Positions 8,610 to 46,196 of a stretch of DNA of 64,000 nucleotides are shown here, in pieces (the first letter of the stretch is position 1; every line of letters starts with the position of its first letter). The stretch lies in contig CAXIEN010000102.1 in assembly GCA_964023285.1 (NCBI GenBank), positions 2,935,528-2,999,527 of the forward strand. The letters are read 5' to 3'. This stretch comes from Larinioides sclopetarius (lineage: Eukaryota). The translations under genes were made by a program, and so were the position numbers. Below the pieces are notes generated by a model. That model was not told the DNA's origin, did not search any database, and saw only the letters and a list, made by a program, of their open reading frames with translations.

Positions 8610-9725
8610 TTAAATTAGTATGATGTGGCCATCACAAAACTTTCTTTTGTATAATTATATAATTGGGATTCATCAGAATCTATAGATATAATGCTTATTT
8701 TTATCCAAAACAAAAAATATTGATAAACTGCAAAATATTTTAAAGCAATGTTGCAGCTATGCTTTTTATCATAGAAATAGAGAAGTGCTTATAACATGCC
8801 TGAAATTCGAATCAAAGCAACTTCATATAGTATAATCTCCTGCATTAAATTTTATGCAATTTCAAAACCGTGATATACTAATAAAAAACATTGTAAAATT
8901 TCGGAAAATTTATGAAAAAAACACAGAATACAAGCGCCACCTGTTGTGCGATTCGCACCAAACTCCAAGCAGCATCAATTTGTGTTAGGATAAACATAAA
9001 GTTTTGTGAAAATCTGCCAATTAGTTTTTCCCCTAAAGCAGCCAAAAATTTTGCAGATTTGTGAAAAAGAAATGGAATAGCAGCACCATCTGTCTAACGA
9101 TCTGCACCCAAATCTAATTGTTAATTAATCGTCAAGCATTAATTCTCTACTAAATATACAATTTTATGAAAATCTATTTATTAGTCTTTGTTCTAAAGCA
9201 GATACAAAATTTCTCAAATCGTGGAAAAGAAACGGAATAGCAGCGCCACCTGTAGAGCAATCCGCACTCAATTCTAATCAGCGCCAAATAATGTTAAAAA
9301 GCAACTAAATATAAAATTTCATGAAATTCTGCCCAGTACATCTTGCGCTAGCACAGCCACAAAAATTATGGAAAAAAACCTGAATAGCAGTGCCACCTGT
9401 GACCTGCATTAAATAAAATCAGTGTTAATTTTTGTTATGATGCTCCTCAATATAAATTATTTTGAAATCCTATTTATTTGTTTTTGTTCTAGAGCAAATA
9501 CAAAATTTCTCAAAAATCATAATAAAACGAGAGTAGCAGCGTTACCTGTTGAGCGATCCACATCAAAATCTAATCAGTACCAATTCATGTTATGATACAA
9601 CTAAATATAAAATTTTGACCAGTATTTTTTGCGCTAGCTCCGCCACAAAATTTGTATCACACAGTAGAAAATTTTCGTGCTTCCAATACTTTCCTCATAT
9701 ATACAAATAAAAGAAAGTAAAAAGA
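8610..9725 (+). repeat. Dispersed repeat, copy 2, with an internal minisatellite of ~5 units of ~150-170 bp (about 8900..9665).
   Basis: Each unit has a conserved core: AATAGCAGCGCCACCTGT / AATAGCAGCACCATCTGT / AATAGCAGTGCCACCTGT / AGTAGCAGCGTTACCTGT. 5' and 3' flanks match copy 1 at 820..1140 and 1465..1565. Confidence 0.7.
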
Positions 9726-13299: not shown

Positions 13300-14520
13300 G
13301 ACCATCACAATAATATCGGCTGCCAAAATGTCTAGCATATGGGGTTCTTTCAACAACAGGTCGGAAGTCAAGGTCAAGAAGATCCATTTTGAAAAGGAGG
13401 AGTTCAACGGAAGGCGGAGTTTTATTTCATGCTTGGTGCCAATTTAACGTGTAAATAAATGTAGCTCATCATTTGTCTTCTTGGTTTTGCTGTAGTTGCA
13501 CGTTTTTCTAATTTCAATTATCTAATATCTTCTATTTATTTATCTAACCACTTAAAATAATTCGTCAACTATTTTCTGATCAACATTATTTACATTTCGT
13601 TATTATTTTTTGCTTTTTAAAACTTGAAATCTTTCAAAATGTCCTTTCAGTTTAAGAAAGGAGAATCATTTAAAGTCGCAAACACGTAAAATGATGTATA
13701 ATGTTGAGGAAGCTAAAGTGAAATCTTTGAAAGTTTCTCTTCCGCAAGCCATGAGAATAGCTTCTGAAGCAACAGGAGTCTTAGAATTAACTATAAGAAA
13801 AATTAGAAATCAAGTGTCAGTATTGGATGAAAGAGAAGTGTTGAGTATTCCTGGGAAGAACCGTTAAAGGCTGTCATACTGAAATTGATGATTTCGACAT
13901 ATGTGTGATACGACAAATAACTTAAGACTTTTACATCCGACAAAAGAAAGTTCCACTGTAAGGAAAATTACTCACTGTGCTGGCAGGTAAGTTGAACTTT
14001 CAATGGAAAAGAGAAACATTCAGAAAAGTAATGCACACAATGAATTTTTGATGGAAGAAGCGAGTTAATAAAAAAAATGTGCACATCGCAAGACCCAGTA
14101 TAGTGTTTTGAAGGAGTAATTACCTACGAAAAATTAGGCAATACAGGTGAAATGGATACCAGATTGTATTTGGGTTGATTGCAACTTGACATTTAAAAAT
14201 GCTAAACAAACAATTTCAGAAGCTGAAATAAATGTTAATTCAAAGAATCAACTCATTGTTGAACATGCTGGGTTGTCCATGGGATTTATTCTTGGGACTC
14301 AATTGGTTTACAAAGCGTCATCGAAAAGCGGGGGATCACCATGGTCAAATGAATTCTGAGAAATGGGTATTGGAAAACCTTATACCAAATTCACAGCCTC
14401 AACGTGTTGTATGTATGGATAATGCTTAGTATCCCATGAAGGTTGCAAATCCAACACCTACAAAGCACAGTTCAAAGAAACAGATGATTGATTGGCTGAC
14501 AATTAATAATGTAACTTGTA
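13300..14520 (+). pseudogene. Degenerate transposase-like remnant in the last MVP intron (frame-disrupted ORFs 14147..14359 and 14232..14429).
   Basis: Fragments such as DDFDICVIRQ, WIPDCIWVDCNLTF and QRVVCMDNA, followed in the next frame by KKQMIDWL, resemble a DDE transposase C-terminal region. No intact ORF, and the family was not determined. Confidence 0.3.
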
Positions 14521-14793
14521 ACATGAAAAATGCGGGAAGCAGAACTGTATTCTCTATTAGACAACAGCTGTCCTAAAGAAATCAAATATACAAGATTGAC
14601 AATCTAATAAAAGAGCATGAGCATAAATTTAGAAGAATTTTTATAGCTCATATCACTAAAAAATAATATCAATTTTAAGACTTAACATTTCATTATCTTT
14701 ATTATGAGTCTTTTGTATCTTTCAAGTTCTAATAAATAATACTCCATATCAAATATCACACACATATAGTAGATCCACAAGAATGAAACATAC

Positions 14794-16045: not shown

Positions 16046-16289
16046 AGCTTCAATCTTCATAGCTTCTGCCTTTGATCTTGCTTGCTCAACAGCAGCTTCA
16101 GCTTCAATTCTTTGAGCCTCTGCTCGACTCAAAGCTTCTGCTTTGGCTTGACCACAGTTCTCTATTGACATGCTGCTCACTTTTAGCTCAAGTAGACTCT
16201 TTCTTTCTTTCTCAGCTTCAACTTCATCAGATATTTTCTGACGCTCCAGTCGCCCACGAGCTTCCTGCTCCCTTCGCTCAGCCTCATGC
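16046..16289 (-). CDS. MVP: MVP coding exon 12 ((R)[81 protein letters not shown]). Cap-helix coiled coil.
   Basis: Acceptor tgtacag, donor GTATGT. Aligns to [81 protein letters not shown]. Confidence 0.85.
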
Positions 16290-16330
16290 CTGTACACATA
16301 AATAAAATTTATCGTTTTTTGATCACTAAA

Positions 16331-17060
16331 TACAGTACGACGCCGGTAATCCGGATTTTAGGTTATTGACTAATCGCTAAATACGTTAATTTACATAAAA
16401 AATTCATTTTTATTACTATTTAAAAGCATATATTAATTTTACCATATAATTTTATTCTGTTTGAATTTCAATGAAAAATCTGGAATTTTGTATGGAACAT
16501 ACATAATGTTGTTATCAGATAAACACAGTCTATAAATATTTTTCAGCTGCCTCATGGAATGAATTATTTTAAGTGATACGAAGACTAAAATTCCATAGAA
16601 GGGTGATTGCAGCTTCGCGCCTAGCATCGGCGATAACGACACCACGAACCTCCACGCGTAAAGAGCTAATCAACGCTGTGCTTTAAAGCGACAGTCGCTT
16701 AAAGGGGACAAAAAAAAAATGTTCTCGGTAATTTTGGAATTTAAAATTAGAAAATAAGGTCACATTTTAGAGAAATTATGGTTTGAGTAAATATTTTAAG
16801 TGAAATCACTTGCAAGTCAAGTAATATGAAACAAATGAAAAGAGCCGAAACAAAAGCATAAGGTGTATTGGAAAGCACTTCTTCAAGTTAGATTTCTGGC
16901 GCAAACGTCTGTGATTCGTTTCTAGCAGCATTTACACCACCGTCAATTTGAGGTCGAACAAAGTATAGCAGTCGAAAAAAATTCTTTTAGACGAAACAAT
17001 TTTTTATTAAAATGGCCGAAATGGTTTCTTTGGAGTTCGGATTATCAGCATTGTACCGTA
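16331..17060. mobile_element. ~730-bp non-autonomous element with ~28-bp terminal inverted repeats (TACAGTACGACGCCGGTAATCCGG ... CGGATTATCAGCATTGTACCGTA), in the intron between MVP exons 11 and 12.
   Basis: Its two ends are mutual reverse complements. A diverged copy at 19523..20270 lies in the opposite orientation. Confidence 0.65.
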
Positions 17061-17781
17061 AATTGTAATAGATGTTATTTAGAAAAGTAATAAAGAAAGT
17101 AAATTTCTTTATAACAGACAGATTGTAGACTATTATGCTCCTTAAGGCTAGTAGGCACACCCAAGAGATTTAGAACAGGCTACATGTACATGATAGTACA
17201 TCACTACTGCAGTTTAACGTTTGTGGGAAAAAAATTATCATACTAACTGTGTAGATAGATATGCAATAAAACATGAAGTTCAACCAAATATTAATGCAAT
17301 TATTTTTCCAAAGGTTGTTAAAATATCTACAACAAGGAATATAGTATATTTAGTAGCTATATCTTATTATTTAAAAATTTATGGAGATTTTTGTTGGATA
17401 ACATAGATAATTGAGGCAGACATTTCGATCTGATATCCCTATCCTTGTTACCAGAAATTGGCTTTAAGAACTATTTGTTTCAAAAAGTGTGTACAAATGG
17501 GTGTAAAAATAATATTAAGTATCACATGCAACAAACAACTAATACAAGACTGCAAAGTAGCTTCAATGCAGCTTGATTCCAAAAGATGAGTATGCTGTAA
17601 ATTAGCGTAAATATTACTGTATCTGTTCCAAAAAGTGTTGCCATGTAATCAATAGCACAAGGAAAATTTACTTCCTAAATAAGCTTCATTGGATAATAAA
17701 TAAAAGAAACTTAATGTCTATTACTGAACAAGCACTGCTAAGAAATCAAAATAAAGATTAAAAAAGAATAACATCACTTAC

Positions 17782-17993
17782 CTGGCAGTAGCTTCCTGAC
17801 TTGAGGTGGTGATTTCTATGGCAAGCTGAACAGATTTTTGCAATGAATCTCTAGTACGTTGATCAACTGGCTCAACACTCTGAATATCAACACTAGTAAT
17901 GTTTAAGTTATTTTGTGGGAAATTGAAGGTTTTCCTTACTTTTCCTTTTTCATCTAAACCAAAAACTGCTGTCCGGATAATTTTTGCAGAGTT
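17782..17993 (-). CDS. MVP: MVP coding exon 11 ([70 protein letters not shown]+AG).
   Basis: Acceptor ctgtccctttcag, donor GTAAGT. Aligns to [80 protein letters not shown]. Confidence 0.85.
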
Positions 17994-18817
17994 CTGAAAG
18001 GGACAGGAGGAGTTGCATTAAGTAACATGTTGCCAAAAAGTAAGTTTCTCAGCAGTCATTAAGGAGACAAACTTAATGACCTGGAAAGATTTATTGAAAC
18101 ACAATAACAGTATTCTTTCAGCTATTTCTCAACAAAAGAAACATTGGAAATTAAGTGCACATCAAACAATGAAACTAATTTCTGTATAGTAATGTCAAAG
18201 AAATCTGCCACCAGTATGTCATTGGGGAAATGTTGAATTCTTTTCAGGTGTTGGAAATGATAATAGTCACTGGGAAAAAAATTGGGAAAACAGACGGGGT
18301 GATCAAATACCTTCCACCTTTCTTAAAACCACTATAGAAATATGCACAGCAATAGTTGACAGCAAATACTGCCATGGAGAAACACTCGGGTGATTCTTAT
18401 ATATATAGAGGTAGCTGAAAGACTGCTATATCTGTTTCTATGTAATTATAATTTGAGCCTCTTTAACACTTCCCCAGAAAATATTCATTTTCAGAATAAA
18501 CAATATTACAAAAAACATTGCGTTTTCTCACTAGTACTAATACCAGAAATCATACTATTATATATAAAAAAGTAAAAATCCAAAGAAAAGTATTCAGTAG
18601 ACATTCTTTAAAACTGCAAGTTGAGATGAACCAAAATTCATTTTACAAAGAATGTATAAATAAATAATAAAAAGAAAACTAATATAATTTATTTGCTACA
18701 CTGACAAATAAAATGAAAGAAAAGAAGCGACAGATATCAAAGACTAAGTAGCTTATAGGATCAAATCCTGCCCATTAAATAAAAAAAATGTGAATTAATA
18801 AATCAAAATTTAATACA

Positions 18818-18962
18818 TGTACTAGCTATGTGGCCCAGCGTTGCACAGGCAATCTCAAATAACACATAATTATTAGATAGTAAGAAATGAGGAATGTCAC
18901 ATGCACAGCATTCTTTCCTAAATTTTAATGTAACTTCTCTTCATAACAGTACATTATAATTG
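18818..18962. repeat. Short dispersed SINE/MITE-like repeat, copy 1 (TGTACTAGCTATGTGGCCCAGCGTTGCACAGGCAATCT...).
   Basis: Similar to 22749..22925. Confidence 0.55.
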
Positions 18963-19522
18963 GGAAAAAATAGAAAATTGTTTCTGCACAGCAGATGACA
19001 TCAAATGAGTTTTATAGCAAGAACTTTATGAATTAAAACACCCTAAGTCAAAAAAGAGAGTGTGTGAAACTATTTACACAAACTTGCTCCCTTTTAATAA
19101 ATAACAAAATGCAAAAACGTAGGATTTAAGAATGAAGTAAAAAAGTATCAACTCTGTACACGATAGATAGCAGCATTAAATAATCATCCAGTTTGATGTT
19201 TTTAACTAATATCCAGTGATAGCAGCACATGCACAGAAAAATATAGGATTCTTGAATAAAAAATATAGGACATTAAAATTTTTAAAAAATCCATCTTAAA
19301 TTTACATAACAGCTTCTTGCAGCAAATGTGAAAAAAAAATTAACTTCATATATATAGCAACAATTAGAACAGAAGAGAATAAATTTTTTAATAAATTGTA
19401 TGCATAAAAATAATAAACATTGAGACACAAAAATGCACCAAGTTCATTTATAAAATAAAAAGAATGATGACTTGCTTCTATTTATGATCAAATATAAAAA
19501 TGAATATTATATAAATATATAT

Positions 19523-20270
19523 ACTGTACGATGCTGATAATCCGAACTCCAAAAAAAAACTGGACATTTTCGCCTGTTAATTTCACCTAAAAACTTTTCT
19601 ACCTCATGTTGGCAGAAGGAATGAAGTTGGTGTCAGAAATCTAACATTGAAAAGCGTTTTCAAAAATTCCATCGTGTTTAGGTTTCGGTTGTTTTCTTTG
19701 CTTCTTTACAAAATAAATACTTTTTACAAGTAATATTACTTAACTTGCAAATGATTTTATTTTAGTCAAAAATCAGGATTTCTGTAAAATATGATCTTAT
19801 TTTTTAATTCCCAAACTGTCAATAACTATTTTTCTTGAACACCCTTCAAGCAGTGGCCCCCTAAAATCACACCAATGCTTGGCCCTTTTCAATTGGAGAT
19901 TTTTTATGTCGCTATCGGCGCTGCTAGAGAAATTGCACCCAGCCCTTCATAACACTTGAAATAATTTATTCCAAGAGGCAGCTGAAAAATATTTACAGAC
20001 TCTATGATTATCTGTTGGCAACATTGTGCAAGTTCAATACTCAAAAAAAATACATGCTCCAATTTCTGTCGGCAATCAGAAATTATGTATGCTTTACTTC
20101 TTTCTCTACTTCTTCCGTAATAAAATTATATGGAAAAATAATATTTTAAAACTGTATTATAATATTTTTAATATAAATTATCATATTTATTAACAGCTTA
20201 ATGCATTTTCTTAAAAAATTTAGTAAATAACCAAAAATCTGGAAAATCCGTTAATCCTGAATTGTCACGG
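19523..20270. mobile_element. Second, inverted copy of the ~750-bp TIR element, in the intron between MVP exons 10 and 11.
   Basis: Reverse-complement similarity (~70-75%) to 16331..17060 along its length. Shared blocks include GCAGCTGAAAAATATTTA.AGACT, GAAATCTAAC.TGAA and ATGCTGATAATCCGAACTCC. Confidence 0.6.
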
Positions 20271-22199
20271 TCCTAATGGTTCTGCACACACAATATTTTC
20301 ATTAATTTATCATTAAAAGAAGATATATTCTGAGTTATGCCATAATTCTTATAAGAAGGGAGTGAATGTTCAGACATATATCTTGTATGAAAGCTTCAAA
20401 TCAAAAAAGAAAGAGAAATTTTTCCACTTTTAGAACTCGAGCAGAAAAGGGTAAATCATGATGTCAAAAAATGCAGAGTTATTAATTTTGAGCACACGAT
20501 TCTCTCATTATGAATTCTCTTACTAACAAGTAAATTAAAAATGGACAATTAAAAATCTTTAGCACAAGAAATAAAACATGCAGCTAAAGAAAAGGAATTA
20601 TAAATTAGAATTTAAAGTAAAATTAAATGGGGTTATTAAATATATGTATGTTTATAAATCTGAAAAGGATCACTTTCTTTTTAAAAACAATGAAAAAAAT
20701 GATAATGTGAAGGCAATGAATTAATATGAAGTAGGCCATGAAAAGAATACTTAAAAGCATAATACTTATATGTATAAAGCTAGAAAAATTTAATTGTAAA
20801 ATTAATCAAATTTAATTCCTTAAAATTGAAAAAAAAAACCCATAGTATTAAAATAGAAGTTTTTGAAAAGAAAGTCAATGTTGGCTGTTATGTTAATATA
20901 ATTATAATTAAAACAATTTAAATTAATTTTTAAAACTAAATATGTTGATATTACCACCTTATAAAATATGTAAGAATTTTTACAATTATAACGCTAAGAC
21001 AATGAATTCTTTGAGTTTCTTCTTTTCAGAATTCAGTTTTTGAATTCTTTTCAGTTTCTTATTTCCTGTTGCAATTAATGCCTGTGCCGCTGGAAATGAC
21101 TTTCTTATCAAAGATGTTTGGTTCCCTCTTCTATAAGTTGGTAGGCAAAATCAACATTATCTTATAAAGAAAGCAATTCATTTTGGATAGTCTTTTGCAC
21201 ATATTTTAGTACCTTATTTACATTGTCGAGCTTGTTTTCCTTTGACTCACTTCCTAGCCATTCAGCTTTGTGTTCTGAGTGTGCTTCTCTATAAAAATGT
21301 ATAGCCCCCCTTTGTAATAACAATCTCAATAATATTTTCTATCCTAATACTGTCGTTAATCAGTCTCAAACCAACGATGGTGGTCTGATCCATTATTCTT
21401 GACCTGTCACTCATCATCCTTTTGTTGACAGAAAATCCCCTTTCTAGTGCTTGTCCATGAGAAAGATAATACCTCTTTTTCCTTATGTTTAAGTCATTTA
21501 ACATTTCTCAAATATGCATCAATTTTTTTCCCACTGCTATACATATTCTTCAAGTTGTTTTTCAACTCTCCACTTCTCTTTTATAACCTCATCAGAAATA
21601 TTAATTGTGATGGAGTTAACAAAGATTGTTAGTGAGAATTCAAAAGAGCAAGCAGAAGCAAAATATGCGGCAACTCTGAAGAGAAAAGAAAGGAGGAATC
21701 ATGCTTCACCTACTGTATCATACTTGAGCAGGGAAAAAAGTGTGCGCTATATATTATCAAAGATTGAATGGAAAGGGAAAATAAAATATATGACAAATAA
21801 CTCTTTTTTTTTAATTATAGGACATTTAAAAAAAATGTTCTAAAATATTGGAATTATAGGACAGCTGAATATCTTTTACCTAATTATAATTTTGGAATGC
21901 TTCAGTTAAATGGTATTTCTCTAAGTACTCCAAACCAGCGTTAATTAGAACCCATATTTTTTTTCACATACCAGAATCGAGATGATATATGCATGATGCA
22001 CTGCCTACCAAAAGTATCAGAGTCAAATCTCACACAATACAAAATATTTGGTAATAAATCTACCTCAGTGACTTAATTTTGATTGTTCTTTCATATCAAA
22101 TGAGAGGTTCAAACTTTCCATTGGTGAAAATGTGTAGAAATTGGCATCATACTATGTCGCGGCGCAATGAATGGTCTGAATGATTCTGATACTTTTTCC

Positions 22200-24650
22200 T
22201 GTAACTTCAGTATAAAGGAAAACAGATGAATCTGCATTGCTTGGGATCCAAATTTTAAAATTTTCCCGACTCTAATTTAAATACGAATGAAGTAATATGT
22301 ACCGCATACATAAACTCTTGAAGTATCAAGGATCTTCTCAAACATTTTTATCAAAAGACCTATTCGAGCATTTTATTTATCTTTTTTTTGCATCAGCAAT
22401 CACCAAAATCTTAACACCAAACCATCTACATCGCATTGTTGCATTATTCAGACTTCCATATTACATTCTTGGAGATTTCAACAGTGAATGAGAAATAGGC
22501 TATGGAATACTTGTTTTAAGAATCAAAATGGTTCGAATTTTGCTGCGACAGTGAAACAAATTGTTTTAAAGTATACCAAAAAATAAAAAAGTATTATAAA
22601 TTAGTTTTCCATTGATAATTTTTTTGATAATTGAAACTTTGGAATCTAAATGATCGAAATGGCTTCCTTGGATTGTTCCGCATATTTTGGTACTTTCCGC
22701 AGGCTTTGTGAGAAGATATTGCCACATACATACAATCAGATTTTAATAGTGTTGACTAGCTAGATGGCCCAGCATTGAACGGGCAATCTAGAGCAATGTC
22801 ACTCTGGTTAAATTATTATTTTTATTTAGCCAGAGTGACAGTAAGAAATGATGTAATGTGTTATATGTCCAGCATTCTCTTCTCAATTTGAATGTGATCT
22901 TTTCCATAATGGTATATTATACTCTAACTTTCGTTAGTCTCCTACCGGGTCACGCTGGCTATTTGTGTGGCCCGGCGCACTCAGCCCCCATTAAATAAAC
23001 TTATAAACTGCAAGAACAGCGAAGTGAACTTTTAAAAATGGAGAGAAAAGAAAAGGTCTTTGTGCTCAAGAGATGGCAACACAGTTTATTCATTACTTTT
23101 CATGTTTTTAATTAATATCTTCTTAATTTGTTATAATTTTTAACCTTAAATGGCCCGACTGCATGGCCGATCTTGAATTGCTCCCACCCAGCACTATACC
23201 GTGTCATTGCAAACTGAATTTTCTATCCGATTCCTATCTTGCTTTAATTCGAAGGGAATAAGATGAATCTATGTTGGTCGGAATCTATCTTTGTTATTTT
23301 GCCCGCCTCTAGTTTATATAAGCACGGAGCAAGATATGATGCATACATAAACTCTCAAAGTGTCAGGGAATCTCTAAGAAAACTTTTTAGTAAAAATCCT
23401 ATTCGAACGATTTAATTCTTCCTGTTTCTTTGTAACAATTTCCAAATCCCAAACCCGAAGCTATCCACATCGTATTGTTGCATTGTTCAGATTTATATAT
23501 TTCTTGGAAGTTTCAACAGTAAAACAGAAAGACACAATTGAATATTAGTTTCAACAATTAAAACAGTTCGAATTGTGGGGCAATAAGAAAACTATTGTTA
23601 TAAAGTGTCCAAAAAATTAATGGTAATGCTGTAAATTAGTTTTCCATCAATTAATTTTATGCTAATAAAATTTCGTTATGTAAATGGCTCCCTTTGATCG
23701 CTCAGCGTATTTTGGTACTTTCCCCGTGTTTCTCTGTTTGACGGTTCATGAAAAGATAGTGCCACATACAGACATACAATCATATTTTAAATAACATAGA
23801 CGAGGTACCCTAAATTTTTACTACAGGTCAGGGAGAGGATTTTAATGGCTTTAAACCTCTCCTGGACAACACATAACATTTTGCAAGAAACCGCATGTAA
23901 ATCGGTTCAGTAGTTTTTTTAGTTTTGGGAGAACACACATACTAACATAGTCTTTAATGTAATAAACCTGATTATTCCCGGCATAAATTATGAATCATCT
24001 GCATTTATCTTATCTTTTGTTGTTTTTCCAAAATTTTATATGTTCTAGCCACACTCTTATACACATTTCTTGTTCTTCATAATAAAAACTAAATTGATAC
24101 AAATTGAATTAAAAAAAAATTAACTTTTAAATCATTGCAAGTTGGCAGCATTCTTTTACTTCTTGAATAAAATAAATTTAAAAAAATGTTTAAATTATTA
24201 TTGTTGCTTAGCAACAAAATATGTTTACAAATGCTTTTATTTCAAAATAGTTTGCAATTAATCATTTTATTCAAAATTTTTAAATAATCAATAAAATTTG
24301 AAACACTGCACAGAAATGAAACTGATGTTATTGGAAAGAAAATTTTTTTATCTTTAAGATTGTATAAAAATATTTGTCGGACAATTTGCACAGAAGTTAT
24401 AGCGGACAAACTGTTTCGATTAATTTCTAATAAACTGATAGGACAAATTGTGCAGTTAATTAGATTTTCATTAATAACTTTTTTGATAATTAAAATTTTG
24501 TAATCTAAATAGTCGAAATGGCTTCCTTGGGTCTTTCTGCATATTTTGGTACCTTCCGCACATTTCTCCATTCGGCGGTTTGTGAGAATATAGCGCTACA
24601 CATATACATACATACAATCAGATTTTAATGGTGTAGATGTCCAAGACATC
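22200..24650. repeat. Three copies of a ~550-bp repeat at ~1.04-kb spacing (22200..22745, 23237..23790, partial 24440..24650), in the intron between MVP exons 10 and 11.
   Basis: Collinear similarity between copies. Shared blocks: GATGAATCT..GCATACATAAACTCT, CATCGCATTGTTGCATT.TTCAGA, TTCAACAGT.AA, AAATGGCTTCCTTGG..CATATTTTGGTAC.TTCCGC..CCACATACA.ACATACAATCA.ATTTTAA. Confidence 0.6.
22749..22925. repeat. Short dispersed SINE/MITE-like repeat, copy 2, with an internal hairpin insert (GTCACTCTGGTTAA...TTAGCCAGAGTGAC).
   Basis: Shares TGTTGACTAGCTAGATGGCCCAGCATTGAACGGGCAATCT and the downstream GTAAGAAATGA..TGTCCAGCATTCTCTTCTCAATTTGAATGT with copy 1. Confidence 0.55.
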
Positions 24651-25181
24651 ATTTGGGGGGAAAATACAAGGGTATGGCATAAAGTTGAAACCAAAGATGA
24701 CCATTTTGATGTTTGTTTGAAAGGGATCACTAAGGGATTATTAAAAATTATGTTAAAATTATTACTTCCCAGCTTATAATAGTATCTATGAAGAAAAAGA
24801 TTTTCAATTGATTGAAATTGCATATAAAGAATATTTAATAATTATCAGAAATTGTCCAATGTAATGCAAGTGAGAAATCATTTCATTAATCAATTTTCAA
24901 TAAATAATAAGCTTATAAAGAAAGATTTAGTTTGTTAATTCTAATAATGAATGCATAAAGCTAATGCAAATAGAAACAGAAGATTTATCTAATAATAATG
25001 CAATAATTTATATAAAAATGCTTTCAGCTCATCTTTTTCTCTACTTAAAAAAAAAAGGTGAATTTTATTATATTAAATTACTTATTCCCATCACTTTTAT
25101 ACCTAAATGCTACTAAAATGTAATTCATAATCATCAACTAACAGAATATTTTTGAATTCATTGAAAAGGAAAAAAACCTGC

Positions 25182-25323
25182 CTTATGAAAATCATCAAAA
25201 TTTGTTCCAGCTACAGTACCACGAATTCTGGAAGCTATTGCTTTACAGAGATCTCCAATGAAATCCGGAACACTGAATAATTTAGCAGATGCCTCAGGGC
25301 TCTTGTCACCAACATCGAAGAAC
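25182..25323 (-). CDS. MVP: MVP coding exon 10 ((W)[47 protein letters not shown]).
   Basis: Acceptor tatctaaag. Frame continuity with exon 11 (DDFHK|NSAKIIR, as in human DDFHKNSARIIR) requires the exon to end after AAG at 25182, followed by GCAGGT, i.e. a GC donor. The nearest GT donor, 4 nt downstream, breaks the frame. Confidence 0.65.
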
Positions 25324-28675: not shown

Positions 28676-31069
28676 CTAGAGAAATAATTAATAATCAGAA
28701 AATCTTCAATAAAATAAGAATTTTGTTGCAATTAAATGAATAAATTCTTTATATATAAAATAGCTCTAGAGAAACATGTTCATATTAACTATTAAAAAAT
28801 ATCACTATTTTTTATTACAGACTGTAATAATTTACAAGATAGTCTTTTTCAAAAAAATTTCATGCGAATTGCAAAGATTTTAGAAATATAAAATTTGTAA
28901 AAGGCTACCTTATTACTACAAAGGGCTGAAAGTATATTACCATGATTTGATTTTAAATTTAACCCTTTCGGACGCCGCCCCTTCAATGAAGACCTTCCCA
29001 CAGGATGGAACAGAGGAGAAAAGAACTGTCCCGCAGGCTGGGTGTTTTACGTAGCTAAGCCTAACTTCAGAAAAAAAAATCACACACAAAAAAAGTTTAA
29101 GTCCTAATGCTGTAATTTTTGGTACCATTTTATATTATTACATAATCTGTAATTTCCGTTAAAATAAGCATTGAATACTTATTTTTTTGATTTTATATGA
29201 AAACAAAAAAATGTGCAATACTTGGAGAAATAATTTTCGGGAGCAAGTAATTTCAAAAGGCAAAACACATAAATAAACATTTAGATTAATAAAAAAATAC
29301 AGCAAAACCCATTTACAAAAAAAAAAAAAAAGGAAATTAAAACCGAGTGCAGTCAACCTAGTAACAGCGTGAAACATAAATCCCTACATTGCATGAAATG
29401 CACAAGCATAAAACGTTTATTTTATTTTCAGAAAATAATGTATCACTCTCAATCATGTAACTAATTGGTTCATTTATTATACAAGTATATTTTTCCTGAT
29501 AATTATCGCTTTGCCGCCATAATAAATCCGAGTCAAGGCTTTCCGGAAAAAAGAAAAGTACACAATATACATAACAAAAGCAAAGAAATGTGTAACTGCA
29601 CTGACAGTAGAACCTAGAAGTATACCGAGAGATAGAGAAATGCGAAACATGTACTGAGTGAAACATTCAAACCCCTCTGTTTACATTATGTTTACCCCCC
29701 CCCCTTTCCAGCAACAGCTGATGAGAACATCCCAAATATAGGCAGAATATGAAAGGACTGAAGGTCAGATTCCGATAATTATGTTTAGTTCAAAATAAAT
29801 GGACACAGGGAGCCAACTAGTGGTCTTTTAAAATTGTTCCAGCTAAAAATGTATATATGCATCGCACGGCTTCAGATACAAGATAGCTAATGATGCATAT
29901 GTGCATCATCCGTCTCCAAAAGGTTAAACAGCTAATATAGGGATAAAAGGTTGTTGCTTTGCTACCAAAAATCTTGGTTTTGGAAATTGATGATTTATTT
30001 TCTTAATAATTGATAGAAAAATTAATGTTAATTTAAATTTTTTTTTAAAGTAATACATATAATTATTTCCTATTACTACCAGAAACACAACTTTATTGCA
30101 AGAGGGAGTGGCGATTTCAAAAGAATCAACATCATTCCTGTGGGCTGATGAGTGGAGCGCACAGAAGGTGCAATTAAATATATAAATATAATTTATTTTT
30201 AGAATCATTTTTTAACTAATTATTTTTCTTTTATTTTTGCAACTCTTATTGATCTATTTTTATGCACTTTCAGGATTTCCTTTGACATTTTAATTTATAT
30301 TCACATACAATAACTGTAAGACATACAATGTCTTCATTGTAGCTATGGGGGCACAGGCCTTATGCTTTTATGTAAAAAAATAGGGGTGGCCAAGGCCATG
30401 TTTTTTAACTTGGCAACAGTGCAATTAATATAAGCAATATAACTCTTTTTTTGCACAACACTTAAATATTTAAAATACCCTTCTCTCACTTATCCAACTT
30501 TATAAATGAAATGTATTTATGTGGGAGAAAGCAGGATTTGCTGAAACGATGGAAACAGAGGAGAAAAAGTGGTTCAAAATTGCCTAACCTTGAGATACCT
30601 ATTTTAAATACACAGATTATAGTATGTATTAAAATATATTATTGTATATTAAATTGTGCAATTTGAATGCTTTGGCACAGCATTCAGATTGCACAATTTC
30701 AGTAAAAAGAACGAATATAAAAAAAACTCCCATTTACTTGTCATTTAAATCTGGATCTAACACAATCGCATACACGAGTAGAAAAATTTGATAGCATTTC
30801 AAATTACTGTTTAATTGAAATTCATTATTTAAATCACCAAAAATCGCCATTTATAAAAAATCTTGACTCAAGGAACAAAACTCTTAAATATTGTACCACA
30901 TATTTTCTTGGTAAATTAAATGGAAAAAAAAATCCCAGTCAGCAGGGGCAGAAGGCAAAGGTAGATTTCATACAATTGAAGATATTAAGAAAGGAACATA
31001 ACATGCTGAATTTTCATTATTATTGGAACTACAAGAATTAAAAAAGATGCAAGAGACTGCAAATAAAAA

Positions 31070-33123: not shown

Positions 33124-36100
33124 CTAATTATAAAATAATAGATAAAATATAATTTTACAGTGATAAAATTAAGGAAGACACTCAAACAATCTACAGCTAA
33201 ACCATTAAGAAATAATTCATGAGATTTAACTAAAAATATGTATTCTTTTTCATTATGTACAAAAAAAATTACACTGTTTTCACATACACTAGTATCTAAA
33301 TGCATGAATTTAAATTTATCAAATTAAATCTTTGAACAGGAACAGTTGAATATCCTGAATACTCATGTATATACATGATTTAAATTTCATTTCAGCGGTA
33401 ACTATTCAAAAATTTCAAGTATAATAAATTTCAATTTCTACATCATTCTTCATCTTTAAGCCTATATATTAGAATGTATTGAAATTAAACAAGTTGTAAT
33501 CTCTAAACCTTAATTCGATGAAGATTTTTATAGGAGTTGCCCTACACATCTTGTTTTCATGTAACGCAAAAAAAAATGTGTCACATAGGAGCAATAAAAA
33601 AAAATTACAACTATTTATATTTTCTCTAAAATTAAAAAAAAAAAATTAAAAATGCTGCCCTAATATATTGCTATTTTTTCTATGTGTTTTGTATAATATA
33701 ATAGAAAATTCTGCAGGGCAAGGGAGAAAACAAACATTGGGAGTTTTTAAGAAAACCTTTATATTTTATCTAAAATTTGTTCACAAAAACTCATGTAATT
33801 GTTATGCACATCAAATACAGCTACTGCTGAAAGTTTCATCTTGATACTAGGGGGGGGGGGCTAAAATAATTTATACCTTTATTAATTTGTGTGTTTTTTC
33901 TTTTAATTATTTATTGGAATCATTCTAGTTTAATACCTTTTCAATCTACCAAGGTGCAACCTCCATCAAATAGTCATTTTTATGCAATACAAATTATTGA
34001 ATTTAACACAAAGTAAGATCATATTTAATATACTTAAATCTAAACATTTAACAAAAAAACTTTTTTGACAAAGCAGCAAATTAATATAAAAAGTTTTAAT
34101 ATATCTGTTGTAACCCAGGAGGAATAGACATATGATAACATTTATAGGCAGTCAGAAACCAAATGCCATTATTTTTTCAGCTCGATTCGATTGTTCACAT
34201 AAATACACTTTAGAGAATATTAGATTATGCAATTAAGTAACGAACTAATTGTCATAAACAAAATGATAATAAAATACATTGTTACCAATTAATTTGTCAA
34301 GTAAGAAGTACTGCTAAATTTTTTCAGCAATTTTCTTTACTAAATTTTTATGACCACTATCCCAACATTAACTGGGCCCTACTTTTCTCTTTTACTGTCA
34401 CAGCAATGTTAACTTATTGAAATCATTTGCTTTCACCTTCTATTTTGTTTTTAATCGCATCTCCCCCTTCAAATTTGTAATTTCCATCACATCTTCATGT
34501 TGTTTTATCGTGTCACATCAAGATTTTCCTTTCTTTTTTTTCTGATTTTTCTAAGGACGTTGCCAGTTGATTTAACAATAGAAACCTGCGGAGCAATCCG
34601 TCTTTAGACTTTTGCCGCTATTCTGTGTTTCTATTGGATTATTTGCTGTTTTTTTCATTACTAAAAAATTGTTTGGTTTTCTTGTGAATATTTGTTTATA
34701 TGATTGATCTTGTTTTGTTTATGTTTGTGATGTCATAGTGGGCGTGTACATTCTTATGATGTCATGACAAATCAGGTTTTAACACATACGCTTTAAGTTT
34801 GGTGGTAAGATACCATGTAGTAGGTTACTTTGCTAAGATGTTAGTATGTTGCTTTAGATTGGTAATGTAAAATGTGGGAGAGAATAGTGGTATTTATTTT
34901 TATCATTTTAAGCTTATTTCTAGAATAAAATAAAGTTTGTTTTTATAGAAGAATGGAGTTGTTCATTTGCAACATATAGTATCCATGGTTAAACCTAACA
35001 TGTTATGCCAACAGTTTTAGTGCAAGATGAATCTTGAATATAGGAATATATATATTTTGTTTATGAAAAACAAAATATACCATAACATGTAGAACAGTCC
35101 CCGAATTGCCCTCATAACACAATCCTTGCTGTAAAATGTGAGCTCTTAACACCTAGCATGTCCCATGATTTTTAGCAACCGATTTTGAACCATCATATTC
35201 AAAACTTCAATTTCATAGCAAATTCTGCATTCAGCAAAATGATATTATATCAAATTTCAGTCAAAGCAATTAATAACTTAAAAATTCTTCATTAGATAAC
35301 ACTGCATTAAATAACAATGGTTAATTGTGAGTTTTTCCTATTGAACTCTGAATGCACTATTTGTTACAGATTGCAATTAAAGGCCAAAAACATGCCTGAA
35401 TTCCTTAGCCATCAAAAGCAAAATGTAAGAAACTAAAATATTCAGTCCATGCAAGGAAAAAGTAGTTAAAAACAAAAAGAATATGCAATCTAATAAATCC
35501 TTCCTCACAGAATACAACACCGTCTTTTACCCCAGGACCTGTAGCCAGCCTGGTCACAGAATGGTTTGATGGGCAAGACACGGGAATTTTATTTCAGAAA
35601 AAAGAAAAACATTATAAATAAAAGAACAAACAAAGAAAAAGAAATATTTACACTATATACAATGCAGGCATTTGCAGTTGCACTCTTATAGTTCGTAAAA
35701 GTTTTTTTCATTTGTTAATGTTAAATCTTCCTTTCTATTTGAAGATAAGGGAAAGACTTATCATCTGGAGCTTTTTCTGGGGGGGGGGGGGAGCAGATTG
35801 CCGACAATTTGTAAACTAGGGTGGTTGGAAGAGGTCTCCATTTTCGCTAATGAATTTGATGTTACTACCAATTTTATGCCTGGAAATGATGTTATGGGCA
35901 ACTCTTTTAAGCCATTCATGTTTAAAGTTTGGTGTTGGCTTCCTCATATACTAAGACAGCACAACTGATACAAAAGTTAAAAAAATTAAGCACGGAGTTC
36001 TGTTGTAAAAATAAAAACACCTGAATCATCATTCAATTTTACTAACCTGAATGATGATTTACATGGAAATACAATTTATGTTACAAATTCAGATACTTGA

Positions 36101-37421: not shown

Positions 37422-37822
37422 GGTACAGCTGGGATATACGGCACCCAAGGCGCCTTGGCGAGATTTGGTTTCATTGGCGACTTTTCGCGTTTGCGTCTAT
37501 CGCGCGTTTTGAAACGCAATCCGCCATTTTGAAGATCGAGCTTTCCATTTCTGGGCAATAAAAAAACTAATTGCCTAACAGTTAATGTAAAAGCGAAGCT
37601 ACGAGGGAGCTGCTTTCCCGAAAGCGAAGCCGCCGATGTTTTTTTAAGTAAAAAAAATTGCCCGGAACGCGTAGAACATAATGTTTACTTCAAGAACTTT
37701 TCTTCATAAGAAACTATACGTAACCGCCATCTTGAATAACGATTATAACTCGCCAGCCGCCATGTTTATTTACATTGAAACGTCACCAAATCGTCGTGGG
37801 TGCCGTATATCCCAGCTGTTCC
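37422..37822. mobile_element. MITE-like non-autonomous DNA transposon (401 bp), with ~25-bp terminal inverted repeats GGTACAGCTGGGATATACGGCACCCAA and a perfect 8-bp target-site duplication CTTCTTAG. Sits in MVP intron 5.
   Basis: The termini are reverse complements of each other. Identical 8-mers flank the element at 37414..37421 and 37823..37830. A second copy lies at 52830..53204. Confidence 0.8.
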
Positions 37823-41299: not shown

Positions 41300-41597
41300 T
41301 ATTATATTCTTTCTATAATTCTGGCAACGCAATACATTGATTACTATTTCTTTTTAACTTATGGCAAAGTAACAAAAATATAAATAGAATTCTACTTTCC
41401 TTTCAACGTTGCAATAGGTAATGTTCTTGTTTAGTTGCTTAATATATCAAATCACGTATCAAGGGAAATGAATATTATTTGTTTGTAAATATGTAAATAC
41501 TTTAAAATGCGTGGAATAATAAATGTATTATTATAAGTTCCGGCATCACATTTTTCGTATCGCATCGATACGCGCCTGCCACCTCAGAAACATAACA
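41300..41597 (+). repeat. 5' LTR of the retrotransposon.
   Basis: ~98% identical to 45906..46196 (about 4 substitutions, an 8-bp and a 1-bp indel). Ends ...AACATAACA. Confidence 0.8.
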
Positions 41598-41601
41598 GTT
41601 T

Positions 41602-41612
41602 TGGCGACAAGG
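41602..41612 (+). other. Putative tRNA primer-binding site (TGGCGACAAGG), 4 nt downstream of the 5' LTR.
   Basis: Starts with TGG, complementary to a tRNA 3' CCA end, in the canonical position. The tRNA species was not identified. Confidence 0.4.
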
Positions 41613-41659
41613 TAAAGTTCTTTTTCTATCAATTTTTCATCGAATATTGTTTTGATATT

Positions 41660-42529
41660 TTGTATTTCATGATGGATGCCGAACAATTTAAAATATTGCT
41701 GCAGGCAATGAATCAAAATAAACAACAGCTGTTAGAGCGATTATTATCAAAAGATAAAACAGAATCGTTTGCGTCTAAAGAAACTTCTGTTATTAACATA
41801 GCTCATATTCCACCATTTGAAAATTTTGATCCTAAGAAAGAGAAATTTAAATATTATAAGCAACGTTTCGAAAATTACTTATTGATGAAAGATGTTTTTC
41901 AAGATAAAGATAAATGTGCACATATATTACTTAATTCTATTGGTGCATCGAATTACAACATCTTGGCGTCTTTAATTGCGCCAAAACCGCCAAACAAATT
42001 GCCGTATGATGATCTCATGAAAGTTCTAGAAAATCATTTGGCGTCAAAGCGCAGCTGTTTAGTTTCCCAGCATTACTTTTTGTCGACTTATCAAAAAGAA
42101 GATAGTTCAATTTCTGATTATGTGGCTGATTTGCAATGTTATATTGCGGATTGTGAATTTTCAGTTACTTGTGAATGTAGCAAAAATGTATCGGTTGCTG
42201 ATATTTTTCTAAGAGCGCAATTTATTCGAGGTATCAAAGACGGTTGGATTAAAGAACAACTCTTACAATCTGAATTAACTGATTTCAATGCACTTGTTGA
42301 TAAAGCTATTGCGCTTGAAACTTCAAAAATAGATGGTCATGAATTATCAAAATCGACTACAACCACCATCGATGGTATAAACAAAGTTTCTAAGCGTAGT
42401 CGCAATCGCCAATCTAATGATATAAAAACCTCTTTCAGAAATCGAAATACAAATCAGAGAGACTTCGCAACAAATTACCGAAGGAAAAGTAAGAAACTCT
42501 CTCGATTTCGAGAAACTTGGAATAAATAA
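41660..42529 (+). CDS. Retrotransposon gag ORF (289 aa), intact, ending at TAA.
   Basis: First long ORF after the 5' LTR and primer-binding site. The following pol frame is +1 relative to gag and is open across the gag stop. Confidence 0.7.
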   Translation: MYFMMDAEQFKILLQAMNQNKQQLLERLLSKDKTESFASKETSVINIAHIPPFENFDPKKEKFKYYKQRFENYLLMKDVFQDKDKCAHILLNSIGASNYNILASLIAPKPPNKLPYDDLMKVLENHLASKRSCLVSQHYFLSTYQKEDSSISDYVADLQCYIADCEFSVTCECSKNVSVADIFLRAQFIRGIKDGWIKEQLLQSELTDFNALVDKAIALETSKIDGHELSKSTTTTIDGINKVSKRSRNRQSNDIKTSFRNRNTNQRDFATNYRRKSKKLSRFRETWNK

Positions 42530-42530
42530 T

Positions 42531-43127
42531 TTGTGCCTGTGTTGCGGACACAATTCTCATTTATCAAGAGACTGTCAATCAAATCCCAACAACTTGAAAT
42601 GTAAAGTTTGCAAATCTACAGATTATGTACAAAAGGTTTGCATCAAAACATTATTAAAAGCTCATAGATCAAACAGTCTTACACAAGAAACAAATTATTT
42701 GAAAACTTATCAAGACATTAGTGTAAATACGATCATTGATAACCGTAATTCAGGATCTTCAGTAGATTCAACGAAATATTTTATTTATGTCAAAATAGAA
42801 AATTGTTTTCAAAAGTTTGAGGTTGACACAGGTGCAGCTTATACGCTCATACCGAATGATCAGTTTCAAAAATTAGGTATAAAAAGACAGCTTGAACCAA
42901 TGAGAATCGCATTTCGATCCTATACTGAAAATGTATTTGTACCACTAGGAAAAGTGCAAGTTAAAGTGGAACACAAGGGTCAAATATCAAATGAAGATTT
43001 GTATGTAGTGCCTGATGGATTTGAACCTTTATTAGGAAGAATCTGGATTAGACATTTAAAAATCAATCTGAATGAAATAGATCAAAACATTGAGGGCAAA
43101 ATTAAATTGGAAGTATTTTCGATCTAA
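42531..43127 (+). pseudogene. pol part 1: CCHC zinc knuckle and aspartic protease, ending at an in-frame TAA (43125..43127). It is in the same frame as the RT ORF.
   Basis: CLCCGHNSHLSRDC knuckle. FEVDTGAAYTLIP protease active site. LLGRIWI. Confidence 0.75.
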
Positions 43128-43184
43128 AACATTTCTGATATTGAAAGGCATTTTCCACAGGTATTCGAACAAAAAGTAGGTTGT

Positions 43185-43990
43185 GTGCCTAATTTTACTA
43201 TCAATTTAAAACTACGTAACGGAGCTAAACCTAGTTACACTCCATCTCGGAATGTACCCTATGCTTTAAGGGAACAAGTTAACAAGGAACTGGATTCTCT
43301 CAAAGCAGCTGGAATTATTTCCAAGTCAGTTACTAGTGATTGGGGATCACCTTTAGTTGTGATTCCAAAAGGAGACGGAACTCTTCGACTTTGCGTAGAT
43401 TACAAAGTTGGAGTTAATGATCTACTTATGAACGTCAACTATCCAATAAAGAAAATCGATGAAGTTTTGAACAATCTTAGAGATTCAAAGTATTTCTGCA
43501 AGCTGGATTTATTTAAGGCATATCTTAATTTACAGACCGATGAAGAGAGTAGTATTATCCAAACGATTTCAACACATCGAGGAACTTATAAAATGAATAG
43601 GCTGAGTTTCGGCATTAAAATGGCTCCGGCTGAATTTAATAGATTAATTGATCAAATTCTAAATGGTTTGCCAAACACTATAGCTTATTTCGATGATATT
43701 GTGGTTCATGGTGAAACTAAAAATCAGTGTGCTAAGAACCTCTTTGCTTGTCTCGAAAGACTACGCGAATATGATTTGCATTTGAACATCAAGAAATGCA
43801 CATTTTTTCAAACAAAGATTGAATATCTAGGTCATGTAATTGAAAACAACAAAATATCAAGATCACCCTCAAAAGTGGAAGCTATTGTACAATTGCCCCA
43901 ACCAAGAAATGTCAAAGAACTTCGACATTTTTTAGGTATGGTTGCTTACTACTCGAGATTCATACCAGATGTTTCTACGATTACCTTTAT
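43185..43990 (+). pseudogene. pol part 2: reverse transcriptase.
   Basis: LRLCVDYKVGVN, YFCKLDLFKAYLNLQ, IAYFDDIVVHG, LGHVIE. A frameshift (~1 bp) near 43985 separates it from the RNase H frame. Confidence 0.8.
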
Positions 43991-44794
43991 CCTCTACGTA
44001 AACTCCTTCGTAAAAATCAAAGGTGTTGTTGGAATCGAGAATGCGAACGGACTTTTCTTCAGCTCAAGGAAGAAATATCCAGTGACAGAGTCCTAGCACC
44101 TTTTAATCCAGAATTACCTGTTTCGTTAGCAACAGATGCAAGCACAGTAGGAGTTTCAGCTGTATTATCACACACAATAAACTATGTCGAAAAGCCAATT
44201 GCTTTCGCTTTCCGTTCATTGACAGAGGTGGAAAGAAATTACTCTCAACTTGATCGAGAAGCCTTAGCTATTATTTTTGGAGTCTCCCATTTCATCGATT
44301 ATATTTATGGTCGACATTTTGTTCTCGTCACCGATAACCAGCCCTTATCCAGAATACTACATCCTAAAACTGGCCTTCCAAAAATGACATCCGCTCGACT
44401 TTTGAGATATGCTTCTTTTCTAGCAGGATTTGATTACACAATCAAATTTAAAAGGGGCCTAGAAAACCAAAATGTCGATTGCTTATCAAGAGCTCCTTTC
44501 CTCAAAAATTGCACATCTGCAGATACATCTATTAATGAAGAAGTCCATCAAATATGTGCATCGACAGAAATTTTGACTGCAGATGCCATTATACAGGAAA
44601 TAGAAAAAGACCCGGAATTGGCAAAAATTAAGCAAGAACTGTTATCAAATTCAATTGACAGTGATTACTTTTTACACTGTGGCATTTTGTTTAAAAACAA
44701 CCGCATCGTGATACCCCAAACACTTCAGCCAATGGTTCTGAAAGAATTACATTCAACCCATATTGGAATAACTAAAATGAAACAGTTAGCATGA
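43991..44794 (+). pseudogene. pol part 3: RT-RNase H connection, RNase H and the start of the integrase zinc finger, ending at an in-frame TGA (44792..44794).
   Basis: PLRKLLRKNQRCCWNRECERTFLQLKEEISSDRVLAPFNPELPVSLATDASTVGVSAVLSH..PIAFAFRSLTEVERNYSQLDREALAIIFG, VTDNQPL, LHSTHIG. Confidence 0.8.
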
Positions 44795-44836
44795 CCCTAT
44801 TGTATATGGAAGAATATCGACAAAGATATAGAAACT

Positions 44837-45680: not shown

Positions 45681-45905
45681 TCCTGGTCATTACCAATTCA
45701 TCAAGCCTTCTACTACTCAAAGGAACAGATTAACTACAGATCGAGATTTAGGAGATTCTGATCAACAGCAGAGGTCCTCACCACCTATCCGGAGGGGTCT
45801 ACAAGAGTTAGACGTCCACCAGCATATCTGCAAGATTATGATCGATCCTAAAATAACTTTTTTTCTTTTCCTTTTTAGCATCCAAATAATCAAGTGGGGG
45901 AGAAT

Positions 45906-46196
45906 TATTATATTCTTTCTTTAATTCTGGCAACGCAATACATTGATTACTATTTCTTTTTAACTTATGGCAAAGTAACAAAAATATAAATAGAATTCTA
46001 CTTTCCTTTCAACGTTGCAATAGGTAATGTTCTTGTTTAGTTGCTTAATATATCAAATCACGTATCAAGGGAAATGAATATTATTTGTTTGTAAATACTT
46101 TAAAATGCGTGGAATAATAAATGTATTAATATAAGTTCCGGCATCACATTTTTTCGTATCGCATCGATACTCGCCTGCCACCTCAGAAACACAACA
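45906..46196 (+). repeat. 3' LTR of the retrotransposon.
   Basis: Direct repeat of 41300..41597, preceded by the polypurine tract at 45892..45904. Confidence 0.8.

Follow-up and report, generated by a model that had tools for sequence, protein, structure and literature searches.

In Larinioides sclopetarius, two diverged copies of one element, A and B, bracket the 11th coding exon of MVP: each occupies one of the two flanking introns, and they are inverted relative to each other. We think it quite likely that A and B are independent old insertions of a single non-autonomous cut-and-paste DNA transposon into adjacent MVP introns, most likely neutral. The features concerned, within the window (the whole 64-kb stretch of DNA that was analysed), are as follows.

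16046..16289, reverse strand: MVP 12th coding exon, 244 nt
16290..17781, reverse strand: MVP intron 11, 1,492 nt, carrying copy A
16333..17058, forward strand: copy A, 726 bp, of the non-autonomous TIR element, within MVP intron 11
17782..17993, reverse strand: MVP 11th coding exon, 212 nt, encoding a segment of the shoulder
17994..25181, reverse strand: MVP intron 10, 7,188 nt, carrying copy B
19524..20270, reverse strand: copy B of the same element, inverted relative to A, ~747 bp, inside MVP intron 10
25182..25323, reverse strand: MVP 10th coding exon, 142 nt

The 212-nt exon 11 placed at 17782..17993 by an earlier sequence-only reading of this DNA is confirmed by its splice sites, a strong acceptor (...ccctttcag/AAC) and a consensus donor (CAG/GTAAGT), and by its product, an MVP shoulder segment (...SSQEATA) that is 92% identical to MVP of Stegodyphus dumicola, the closest MVP protein match. 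In the gene model, the 5′ splice site of intron 10, at 25181-25180, is GC rather than GT (AAG/GCAGGT). Copy A lies 723 nt downstream of the exon 11 donor and copy B 1,530 nt upstream of the acceptor, very near the ~720 bp and 1.5 kb first proposed; the transcript-3′ end of A is 41 nt upstream of the intron 11 AG. The frame shift expected on skipping of exon 11 is also borne out: the skipped product reads ...DDFHKA and then stops, the TGA occupying nucleotides 4-6 of exon 12. A 212-nt circle of exon 11 would run into stops after a single round, whichever frame is read. At the 5′ end of the gene, the ATG exon begins 2 nt past an AG acceptor, so there is at least one 5′UTR exon further upstream.

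Copy B is the collinear reverse complement of A. Specifically, i) find_repeats identifies inverted arms at 16527-16583/19945-20001 (57 nt, 89%; the best internal complementary block of A, holding a 21-nt exact run), 17025-17063/19519-19557 (39 nt, 90%), 16798-16827/19733-19762 (30 nt, 87%), and 16436-16456/20119-20139 (21 nt, 95%); ii) gapped blastn connects these arms into a 447-nt core at 66% identity (E from 8e-43 to ~1e-41) and further pieces of 79 nt (76%) and 39 nt (90%), every one of them a minus-strand match and in collinear order; and iii) a global MAFFT alignment, counted within the element, has 449 matches, 187 mismatches, and 200 gap columns, corresponding to 70.6% identity in ungapped columns (~71%), 54% with gaps counted, and a Jukes-Cantor distance of 0.37. 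Uninterrupted matches reach 23, 21, and 15 nt at the longest, and permutation of match and mismatch columns gives no convincing sign of uneven conservation along the alignment (p~0.05-0.06), hence no indication of selection on the pairing. Over the 64 kb, an nhmmer profile finds only A and B. The inverted pair of one diverged element across exon 11 thus stands as the sequence-only reading had it, with outer limits (16331 and 20270 there) that agree with A at 16333-17058 and B at 19524 to about 20270; and the reverse-complement comparison of the arms which that reading had suggested does reveal extended similarity.

The similarity between the copies ends at CNGTAC termini, and a 21-nt motif, GTACRAYGCYGRTAATCCGRA, is present at three of the four, against none expected in shuffled sequence. 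The termini are:

16333..16360, forward strand: left terminal inverted repeat of A, CAGTACGACGCCGGTAATCCGGATTTTA, with TA before it at 16331-16332
17031..17058, reverse strand: right terminal inverted repeat of A, reverse complement CGGTACAATGCTGATAATCCGAACTCCA, with TA after it at 17059-17060
19524..19551, forward strand: well-preserved terminus of B, CTGTACGATGCTGATAATCCGAACTCCA, with TA before it at 19522-19523
20243..20270 (approximate), reverse strand: degenerate far terminus of B, with indels, recognisable only through homology to the left end of A

The two terminal inverted repeats of A are identical at 19 of 28 positions, and the well-preserved terminus of B has a 23-nt exact run in common with the right end of A. 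The earlier claim that each copy has terminal inverted repeats of ~28 bp therefore holds for A and only weakly for B, where the far end is degenerate. TA adjoins the CNGTAC terminus at three of the four ends, a dinucleotide that is frequent by chance in 70% A+T sequence; the fourth end, that of B near 20270, has TC instead, and the nearest TA is 4 nt off, at 20274-20275.

A and B are copies of a non-coding element, and we call it non-autonomous because it has no ORF longer than 68 amino acid residues, no Pfam domain in the six frames of A, and no match in Rfam (E<=1) or ARAGORN tRNA searches. No autonomous relative was found within the 64-kb window, and a full-text literature search for substrings of the TIRs returned no paper. 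Two candidate leads were set aside: a metagenome match to the 20-nt shared terminus GCTGATAATCCGAACTCCAA, confined to a single 46%-GC contig and without similarity past 22 nt, is attributed to chance; and ORF fragments at 13.7-14.6 kb that look Tc1-like by eye have no Pfam support and share neither DNA similarity nor the TIR motif with the element. The element is probably a deletion derivative of the Tc1/mariner superfamily or MITE-like, a class assigned solely on the terminal bases and on the TA next to them, in a genome of 70% A+T. It resembles the Tc1/mariner-derived Stowaway-like MITEs (PMC3814204) in the TA that flanks three of the four ends of A and B and in its imperfect terminal inverted repeats, and likewise in being intronic and without coding capacity in an A+T-rich arthropod genome, but its 726-747 bp equal or exceed the usual size of a MITE.

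The pair appears to be confined to a lineage. Neither copy of the element is found in the Stegodyphus dumicola introns orthologous to MVP introns 10 and 11, where the only cross-intron matches around the orthologous exon are weak and AT-rich, none of them comparable; empty sites could not be identified in introns so diverged. We take A and B, judging from this sequence comparison, to be lineage-specific old transposon relics.

Folding of the pre-mRNA segment, also suggested by the sequence-only reading, predicts strong pairing between the copies. The minimum free energy structure of the 4.2 kb from 16200 to 20400 contains 425 B:A pairs, from 20243:16350 to 19526:17056, against 53 A:A and 56 B:B pairs within the same copy; duplexfold gives -445.8 kcal/mol for A:B as compared with -194.5 +/- 9.9 kcal/mol for shuffles; and two-strand cofolding of A and B yields a ddG of -180.5 kcal/mol and an expectation of ~433 pairs between the strands, versus -7.7 +/- 5.3 kcal/mol for shuffled B and -14.8 +/- 5.7 kcal/mol for random intron pairs. 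These are thermodynamic predictions that ignore co-transcriptional kinetics, RNA-binding proteins, and helicases. Among the 12 internal MVP coding exons, only exon 11 has a strong cross-intron reverse-complement match (161 bits, at most 33 elsewhere), and neither A nor B has a rival partner within its own intron by blastn or nhmmer. Cross-intron pairing is thus predicted to be favoured over pairing within an intron.

In animals, ADAR acts chiefly on intronic inverted repeats. The long intramolecular dsRNA might mainly be a target of dsRNA processing, through A-to-I editing by ADAR or the Dicer-dependent production of endo-siRNAs, instead of affecting splicing, as the ~430 predicted base pairs and exact helices of 23 and 21 bp could suggest. 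We consider this unlikely: the duplex is bulge-rich and ~71% matched, far below typical hairpin-RNA siRNA loci, and would be intronic and short-lived; and such processing is in any case compatible with an effect on splicing as well. A hairpin-RNA (endo-siRNA) locus in the strict sense was rejected, the arms falling short of near-perfect dsRNA in ungapped identity (71%), gap columns (200), and longest exact helix (23 bp).

The nearest parallel for a splicing effect is exon 2 of Drosophila laccase2, which lies between inverted DNAREP1_DM fragments matching at 75% over 106 nt and 69% over 272 nt; that repeat pair is both necessary and sufficient for circularisation, the base-pairing having been established by compensatory mutagenesis (PMC4617980). 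Both are arthropod genes with a single exon set between a pair of diverged copies, inverted relative to each other, of a non-autonomous DNA-type repeat; complementarity is comparable (66%/447 nt, 76%/79 nt, 90%/39 nt, and an 89% block of 57 nt for the MVP pair); and in neither case are the repeats conserved among related species. The differences are as plain: the laccase2 circle is abundant and its pairing proven, while the MVP case is known from sequence and folding; the laccase2 repeats are very near the exon, whereas the MVP copies are 0.7 and 1.5 kb off; and both the exon (490 nt there, 212 nt here) and the transposon family differ.

More generally, repeats shorter than 40 nt can suffice for circularisation (PMC4617980), and reverse-complementary matches favour back-splicing and skipping alike (PMC8330042). 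The inverted Alu pairs and reverse-complementary matches of mammals and C. elegans, as outlined in PMC4617980 and PMC8330042 (Jeck 2013, Zhang 2014, Liang and Wilusz 2014, and Ivanov 2015, cited in PMC4617980), represent the same class of mechanism: cross-intron pairing joins the back-splice sites and can also promote skipping, as would be the case here, and like the MVP pair they have no competing partner within the intron. In the same accounts, the repeats concerned are either SINE retroelements or matches that are short and unique, whereas ours is a DNA-transposon relic, and the association with circRNAs is statistical and genome-wide, whereas ours concerns a single locus. Many exons between complementary repeats do not circularise, according to PMC4617980 (citing Westholm 2014).

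By analogy with the Alu pairs and laccase2 DNAREP1_DM, back-splicing or skipping of MVP exon 11 through A:B pairing is a possibility, and as modelled the pair is structurally competent for back-splicing. The proposed sequence of events is that i) one transposon would have inserted twice, in separate old events, into neighbouring MVP introns in opposite orientation; ii) in the minus-strand pre-mRNA, A and B would pair as an imperfect duplex of ~430 bp (computed), looping out 2,465 nt that include exon 11 and bringing the 3′ and 5′ splice sites of the exon together; iii) exon 11 would thereby become permissive for back-splicing, giving a 212-nt circle with a predicted junction joining CCTCAAGTCAGGAAGCTACTGCCAG to AACTCTGCAAAAATTATCCGGACAG; and/or iv) exon 11 would be skipped, with a predicted junction joining AACAAATTTTGATGATTTTCATAAG to GCATGAGGCTGAGCGAAGGGAGCAG and a premature stop that would probably expose the transcript to NMD. 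If anything, the competition would be shifted toward back-splicing by the weak GC donor of intron 10. That a back-spliced or skipped exon 11 product could be detected is possible, if on the doubtful side. Our literature search found no paper on spider circRNAs, and to our knowledge the rules of circRNA biogenesis in chelicerates are essentially unstudied.

A stronger proposal is that the pair has been selected as a functional driver of an exon 11 circRNA or of regulated unproductive skipping, such that competition between linear splicing and back-splicing tunes MVP output. We judge this very improbable, despite very strong predicted pairing that is unique in the MVP gene, consensus splice sites at exon 11 downstream of a weak GC donor, the laccase2 precedent (PMC4617980), and the fact that human MVP also produces a single-exon circle, circMVP (hsa_circ_0000688; PMC11667818). 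The human circle comes from the orthologous gene family, but it derives from exon 8 (256 nt) and not from a shoulder-domain exon, and is unrelated to the transposon pair (PMC11667818). The copies, moreover, are highly decayed, as the Jukes-Cantor distance and gap columns attest; their block-wise conservation is without significance; both are missing from the Stegodyphus ortholog; and the circle would meet stops in all frames after one round. It would be just as surprising if A:B pairing had any selected function, and we give very little credence to the idea that the transposon pair and the weak GC donor together bring about efficient back-splicing of exon 11, whether as an abundant 212-nt circRNA and/or as a regulated, NMD-targeted skip isoform tuning vault protein output. 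The arrangement most probably arose neutrally, as a by-product of the accumulation of transposons, with any circle or skip product being low-level splicing noise.

Least credible of all is that the arms are not transposon copies but arose by local segmental duplication of intron sequence in inverted orientation; the window has just two copies, 2.5 kb apart, and neither the metagenome scan nor the TIR full-text search found further family members, but we reject the duplication because homology stops exactly at the TIR termini, ending sharply in mutually inverted repeats with TA flanks, the sequence beyond both sides of each copy is unrelated, and the bracketed exon and its boundaries are ancestral, being common to Stegodyphus and human.

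An inverted transposon pair around an exon, as two insertions of one element have probably created here, is an ordinary and well-known arrangement; as it stands, the locus opens no new question, and mainly illustrates how often transposon-rich introns yield such pairs by chance. If exon 11 circles or skip isoforms do exist, they would add a case in which complementarity between introns, born of transposons, shapes splicing, one that might be the first on record for a chelicerate, and the locus would be a handy natural minigene of 4 kb with one exon and two arms. If efficient back-splicing were true, the pair would constitute a lineage-specific, transposon-born splicing switch in a chelicerate.

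The MVP (major vault protein) gene lies on the minus strand of the window, whose G+C content is about 30%. In a protein search, the obvious exon translations joined into a 391-aa sequence match MVPs across animals, first that of the spider Stegodyphus dumicola (69% overall, with per-exon identity up to 90-93%) and then that of the horseshoe crab Tachypleus (64%). These identities make the source an arachnid and probably a spider. Tblastn with database MVPs, and with a human MVP sequence that served purely as a probe, places 14 coding exons from 47442 down to 12403. The ATG exon opens 2 nt past an AG acceptor (tttttgcag/GTATGGCT, ~47448-47460, minus); the gene must thus have at least one noncoding 5′UTR exon on its upstream side, and the name "exon 11" counts coding exons only. 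Exon 11, which codes for a shoulder-domain stretch ending ...SSQEATA, is bracketed by two inverted copies, A and B, of a short noncoding transposon.

Features at MVP exon 11
16046-16289 and 25182-25323, minus: MVP coding exons adjoining exon 11
16290-17781, minus: MVP intron 11, 1,492 nt
16333-17058: copy A, 726 bp, in intron 11
17782-17993, minus: MVP 11th coding exon, 212 nt, bounds ...ccctttcag/ and /gtaagt
17994-25181, minus: MVP intron 10, 7,188 nt
19524-~20270: copy B, ~747 bp, inverted, in intron 10

The inverted repeat is real. A repeat search finds four inverted blocks in collinear order, of 57 nt (89%), 39 nt (90%), 30 nt (87%), and 21 nt (95%), which gapped blastn merges into a 447-nt core of 66% identity (E~1e-41 to 1e-43) with flanking pieces; a MAFFT alignment of 16322-17072 with the reverse complement of 19508-20282, its columns counted inside the element, shows 449 matching, 187 mismatched, and 200 gapped columns. 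Identity is 70.6% over ungapped columns and falls to 54% once gaps are counted; the Jukes-Cantor distance is 0.37. The sequence-only reading had proposed comparing 16.3-17.1 kb with reverse-complemented 19.5-20.3 kb; the alignment does reveal an extended match there, and the mapped limits are essentially the coordinates first noted. Such divergence between the copies implies insertions that are probably old. A profile built from A and B detects no further copies in the 64 kb.

Homology between A and B ends abruptly at the termini, with unrelated flanks on all four sides; the termini are mutually inverted (CAGTACGACGCCGGTAATCCGGA..., CGGTACAATGCTGATAATCCGAA... and CTGTACGATGCTGATAATCCGAA...); TA immediately adjoins three of the four; and neither copy contains an ORF longer than 68 aa, a Pfam domain in six frames, or an Rfam or tRNA match. 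We conclude from this anatomy that A and B are transposon copies, and specifically a nonautonomous cut-and-paste element. A 21-nt degenerate terminus motif has no other occurrence in the 64 kb and none in 100 shuffles, although it was built from these termini and is hence circular for them. The terminal inverted repeats of ~28 bp first ascribed to each copy hold for A, whose ends agree at 19 of 28 positions; the second end of B is degenerate. The TA flank and C(A)GT terminus presumably place the element in the Tc1/mariner superfamily, an assignment only moderately secure because TA is commonplace in this A+T-rich DNA and because searches yielded no autonomous relative, additional copy, or empty site. 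MVP intron 13 holds a series of short ORFs (13691-14576, plus) that resembled a degraded DDE transposase by eye (e.g. ...NSEKWVLENLIPNSQPQRVVCMDNA), but the series has no Pfam support and is unrelated to the A/B element.

The window holds other repeats. A different MITE-like element of ~400 bp forms a second inverted pair (37422-37822 and 52830-53204; 79% over 411 nt; TIRs GGTACAGCTGGGATATAYG), better preserved than A/B; MVP intron 5 contains one member and the other is situated 5′ of the ATG exon, so that the pair would bracket MVP coding exons 1-5 if 52830-53204 sits in a 5′UTR intron. MVP intron 2 contains, in antisense orientation, a near-complete LTR retrotransposon of Ty3/gypsy order (41300-46196, plus). 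Its LTRs (41300-41597 and 45906-46196) share 95.7% identity, and its ORFs, interrupted by a few stops, match PNMA-like gag, aspartyl protease, RVT_1, RNase H, and integrase core. Intron 10 also carries three direct copies of another repeat (22144-22762, 23191-23807, and 24458-24637; 68-76%, ~1 kb spacing), whose short ORFs have no Pfam match. Two palindromic segments of ~150-170 bp, 30593-30758 (intron 6) and 33300-33443 (intron 5), could represent small foldback elements or MITEs, and a family with internal ~150-bp tandem units (821-1562 and 8611-9722; 64-72% identity) lies downstream of the MVP 3′ end.

Transcription reaches B before A: B lies 1,530 nt ahead of the exon 11 acceptor, and A starts 723 nt past the exon 11 donor. 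Duplexfold of the two arms yields -445.8 kcal/mol against -194.5 ± 9.9 for 100 dinucleotide shuffles; cofolding, relative to the separately folded arms, yields a ddG of -180.5 kcal/mol with ~433 expected intermolecular pairs, against -7.7 ± 5.3 for shuffled B and -14.8 ± 5.7 for intron pairs drawn at random within MVP. The top cross-intron reverse-complement match reaches 161 bits at exon 11 and at most 33 bits at the other 11 internal coding exons. Sequence and profile searches find no competing partner for A or B inside its own intron, and the unconstrained MFE structure of the 4.2-kb segment 16200-20400 contains 425 B:A pairs (20243:16350 to 19526:17056) but only 53 A:A and 56 B:B pairs. 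Given this strong cross-copy pairing and the lack of rival partners, thermodynamic prediction indicates that the structural precondition for pairing-assisted back-splicing exists at exon 11; the proposal that the pair could serve as a back-splicing substrate or promote exon skipping thus has a computationally sound premise.

Were the pairing used, back-splicing would close exon 11 into a 212-nt circle across the junction ...GCTACTGCCAG/AACTCTGCAAAA..., and skipping would join exon 10 to exon 12. The frame shift foreseen for skipping is borne out by translation of that join, which would read ...DDFHKA and then TGA; because this stop is premature and precedes the last exon by two exon junctions, the skip product would be a likely NMD target. 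Intron 10, directly upstream of exon 11, is probably a GC-AG intron: its 5′ splice site is GC, not GT (AAG/GCAGGT; TTTCATAAG/GCAGGTTTTT, 25176-25181, minus), and the reading frame is kept only if the GC site is used; the Stegodyphus donor at the equivalent codon boundary is CATAAA/GTATGA. Against this weak donor, the strong exon 11 donor may compete better for the exon 11 acceptor. Copy A ends only 41 nt from the intron 11 acceptor AG (16292-16332, minus), so that the branch point and polypyrimidine tract must lie within those 41 nt or in the transposon terminus.

Among experimentally tested cases, Drosophila laccase2 comes nearest: its exon 2 is flanked by inverted DNAREP1_DM fragments (75% over 106 nt, 69% over 272 nt); ~100 nt per repeat suffices for circularization, which is lost on disrupting six base pairs and rescued by compensatory changes, and D. 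yakuba lacks both repeats and circle (PMC4617980). Many repeat-flanked exons nonetheless fail to circularize, and trans-acting factors modulate the outcome (PMC4617980); reverse-complementary matches in C. elegans favor skipping as well as back-splicing (PMC8330042). Human MVP forms a single-exon circle, but from exon 8 (PMC11667818), a different exon from that bracketed by A and B. Our literature search found no paper on spider circRNAs.

The Stegodyphus MVP locus has the orthologous exon at 17235-17447, between introns of 1.3 and 5.65 kb, but no copy of the A/B element, and its cross-intron matches are weak and A+T-rich only. Nor is conservation along the A/B alignment significantly uneven (p~0.05-0.06); thus nothing suggests selection for pairing. 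We would rate a detectable back-spliced or skipped product as possible but somewhat doubtful, and a selected function for the pairing as highly improbable. A and B are lineage-specific, decayed transposon relics that chance to bracket one exon, an arrangement of a well-known kind.
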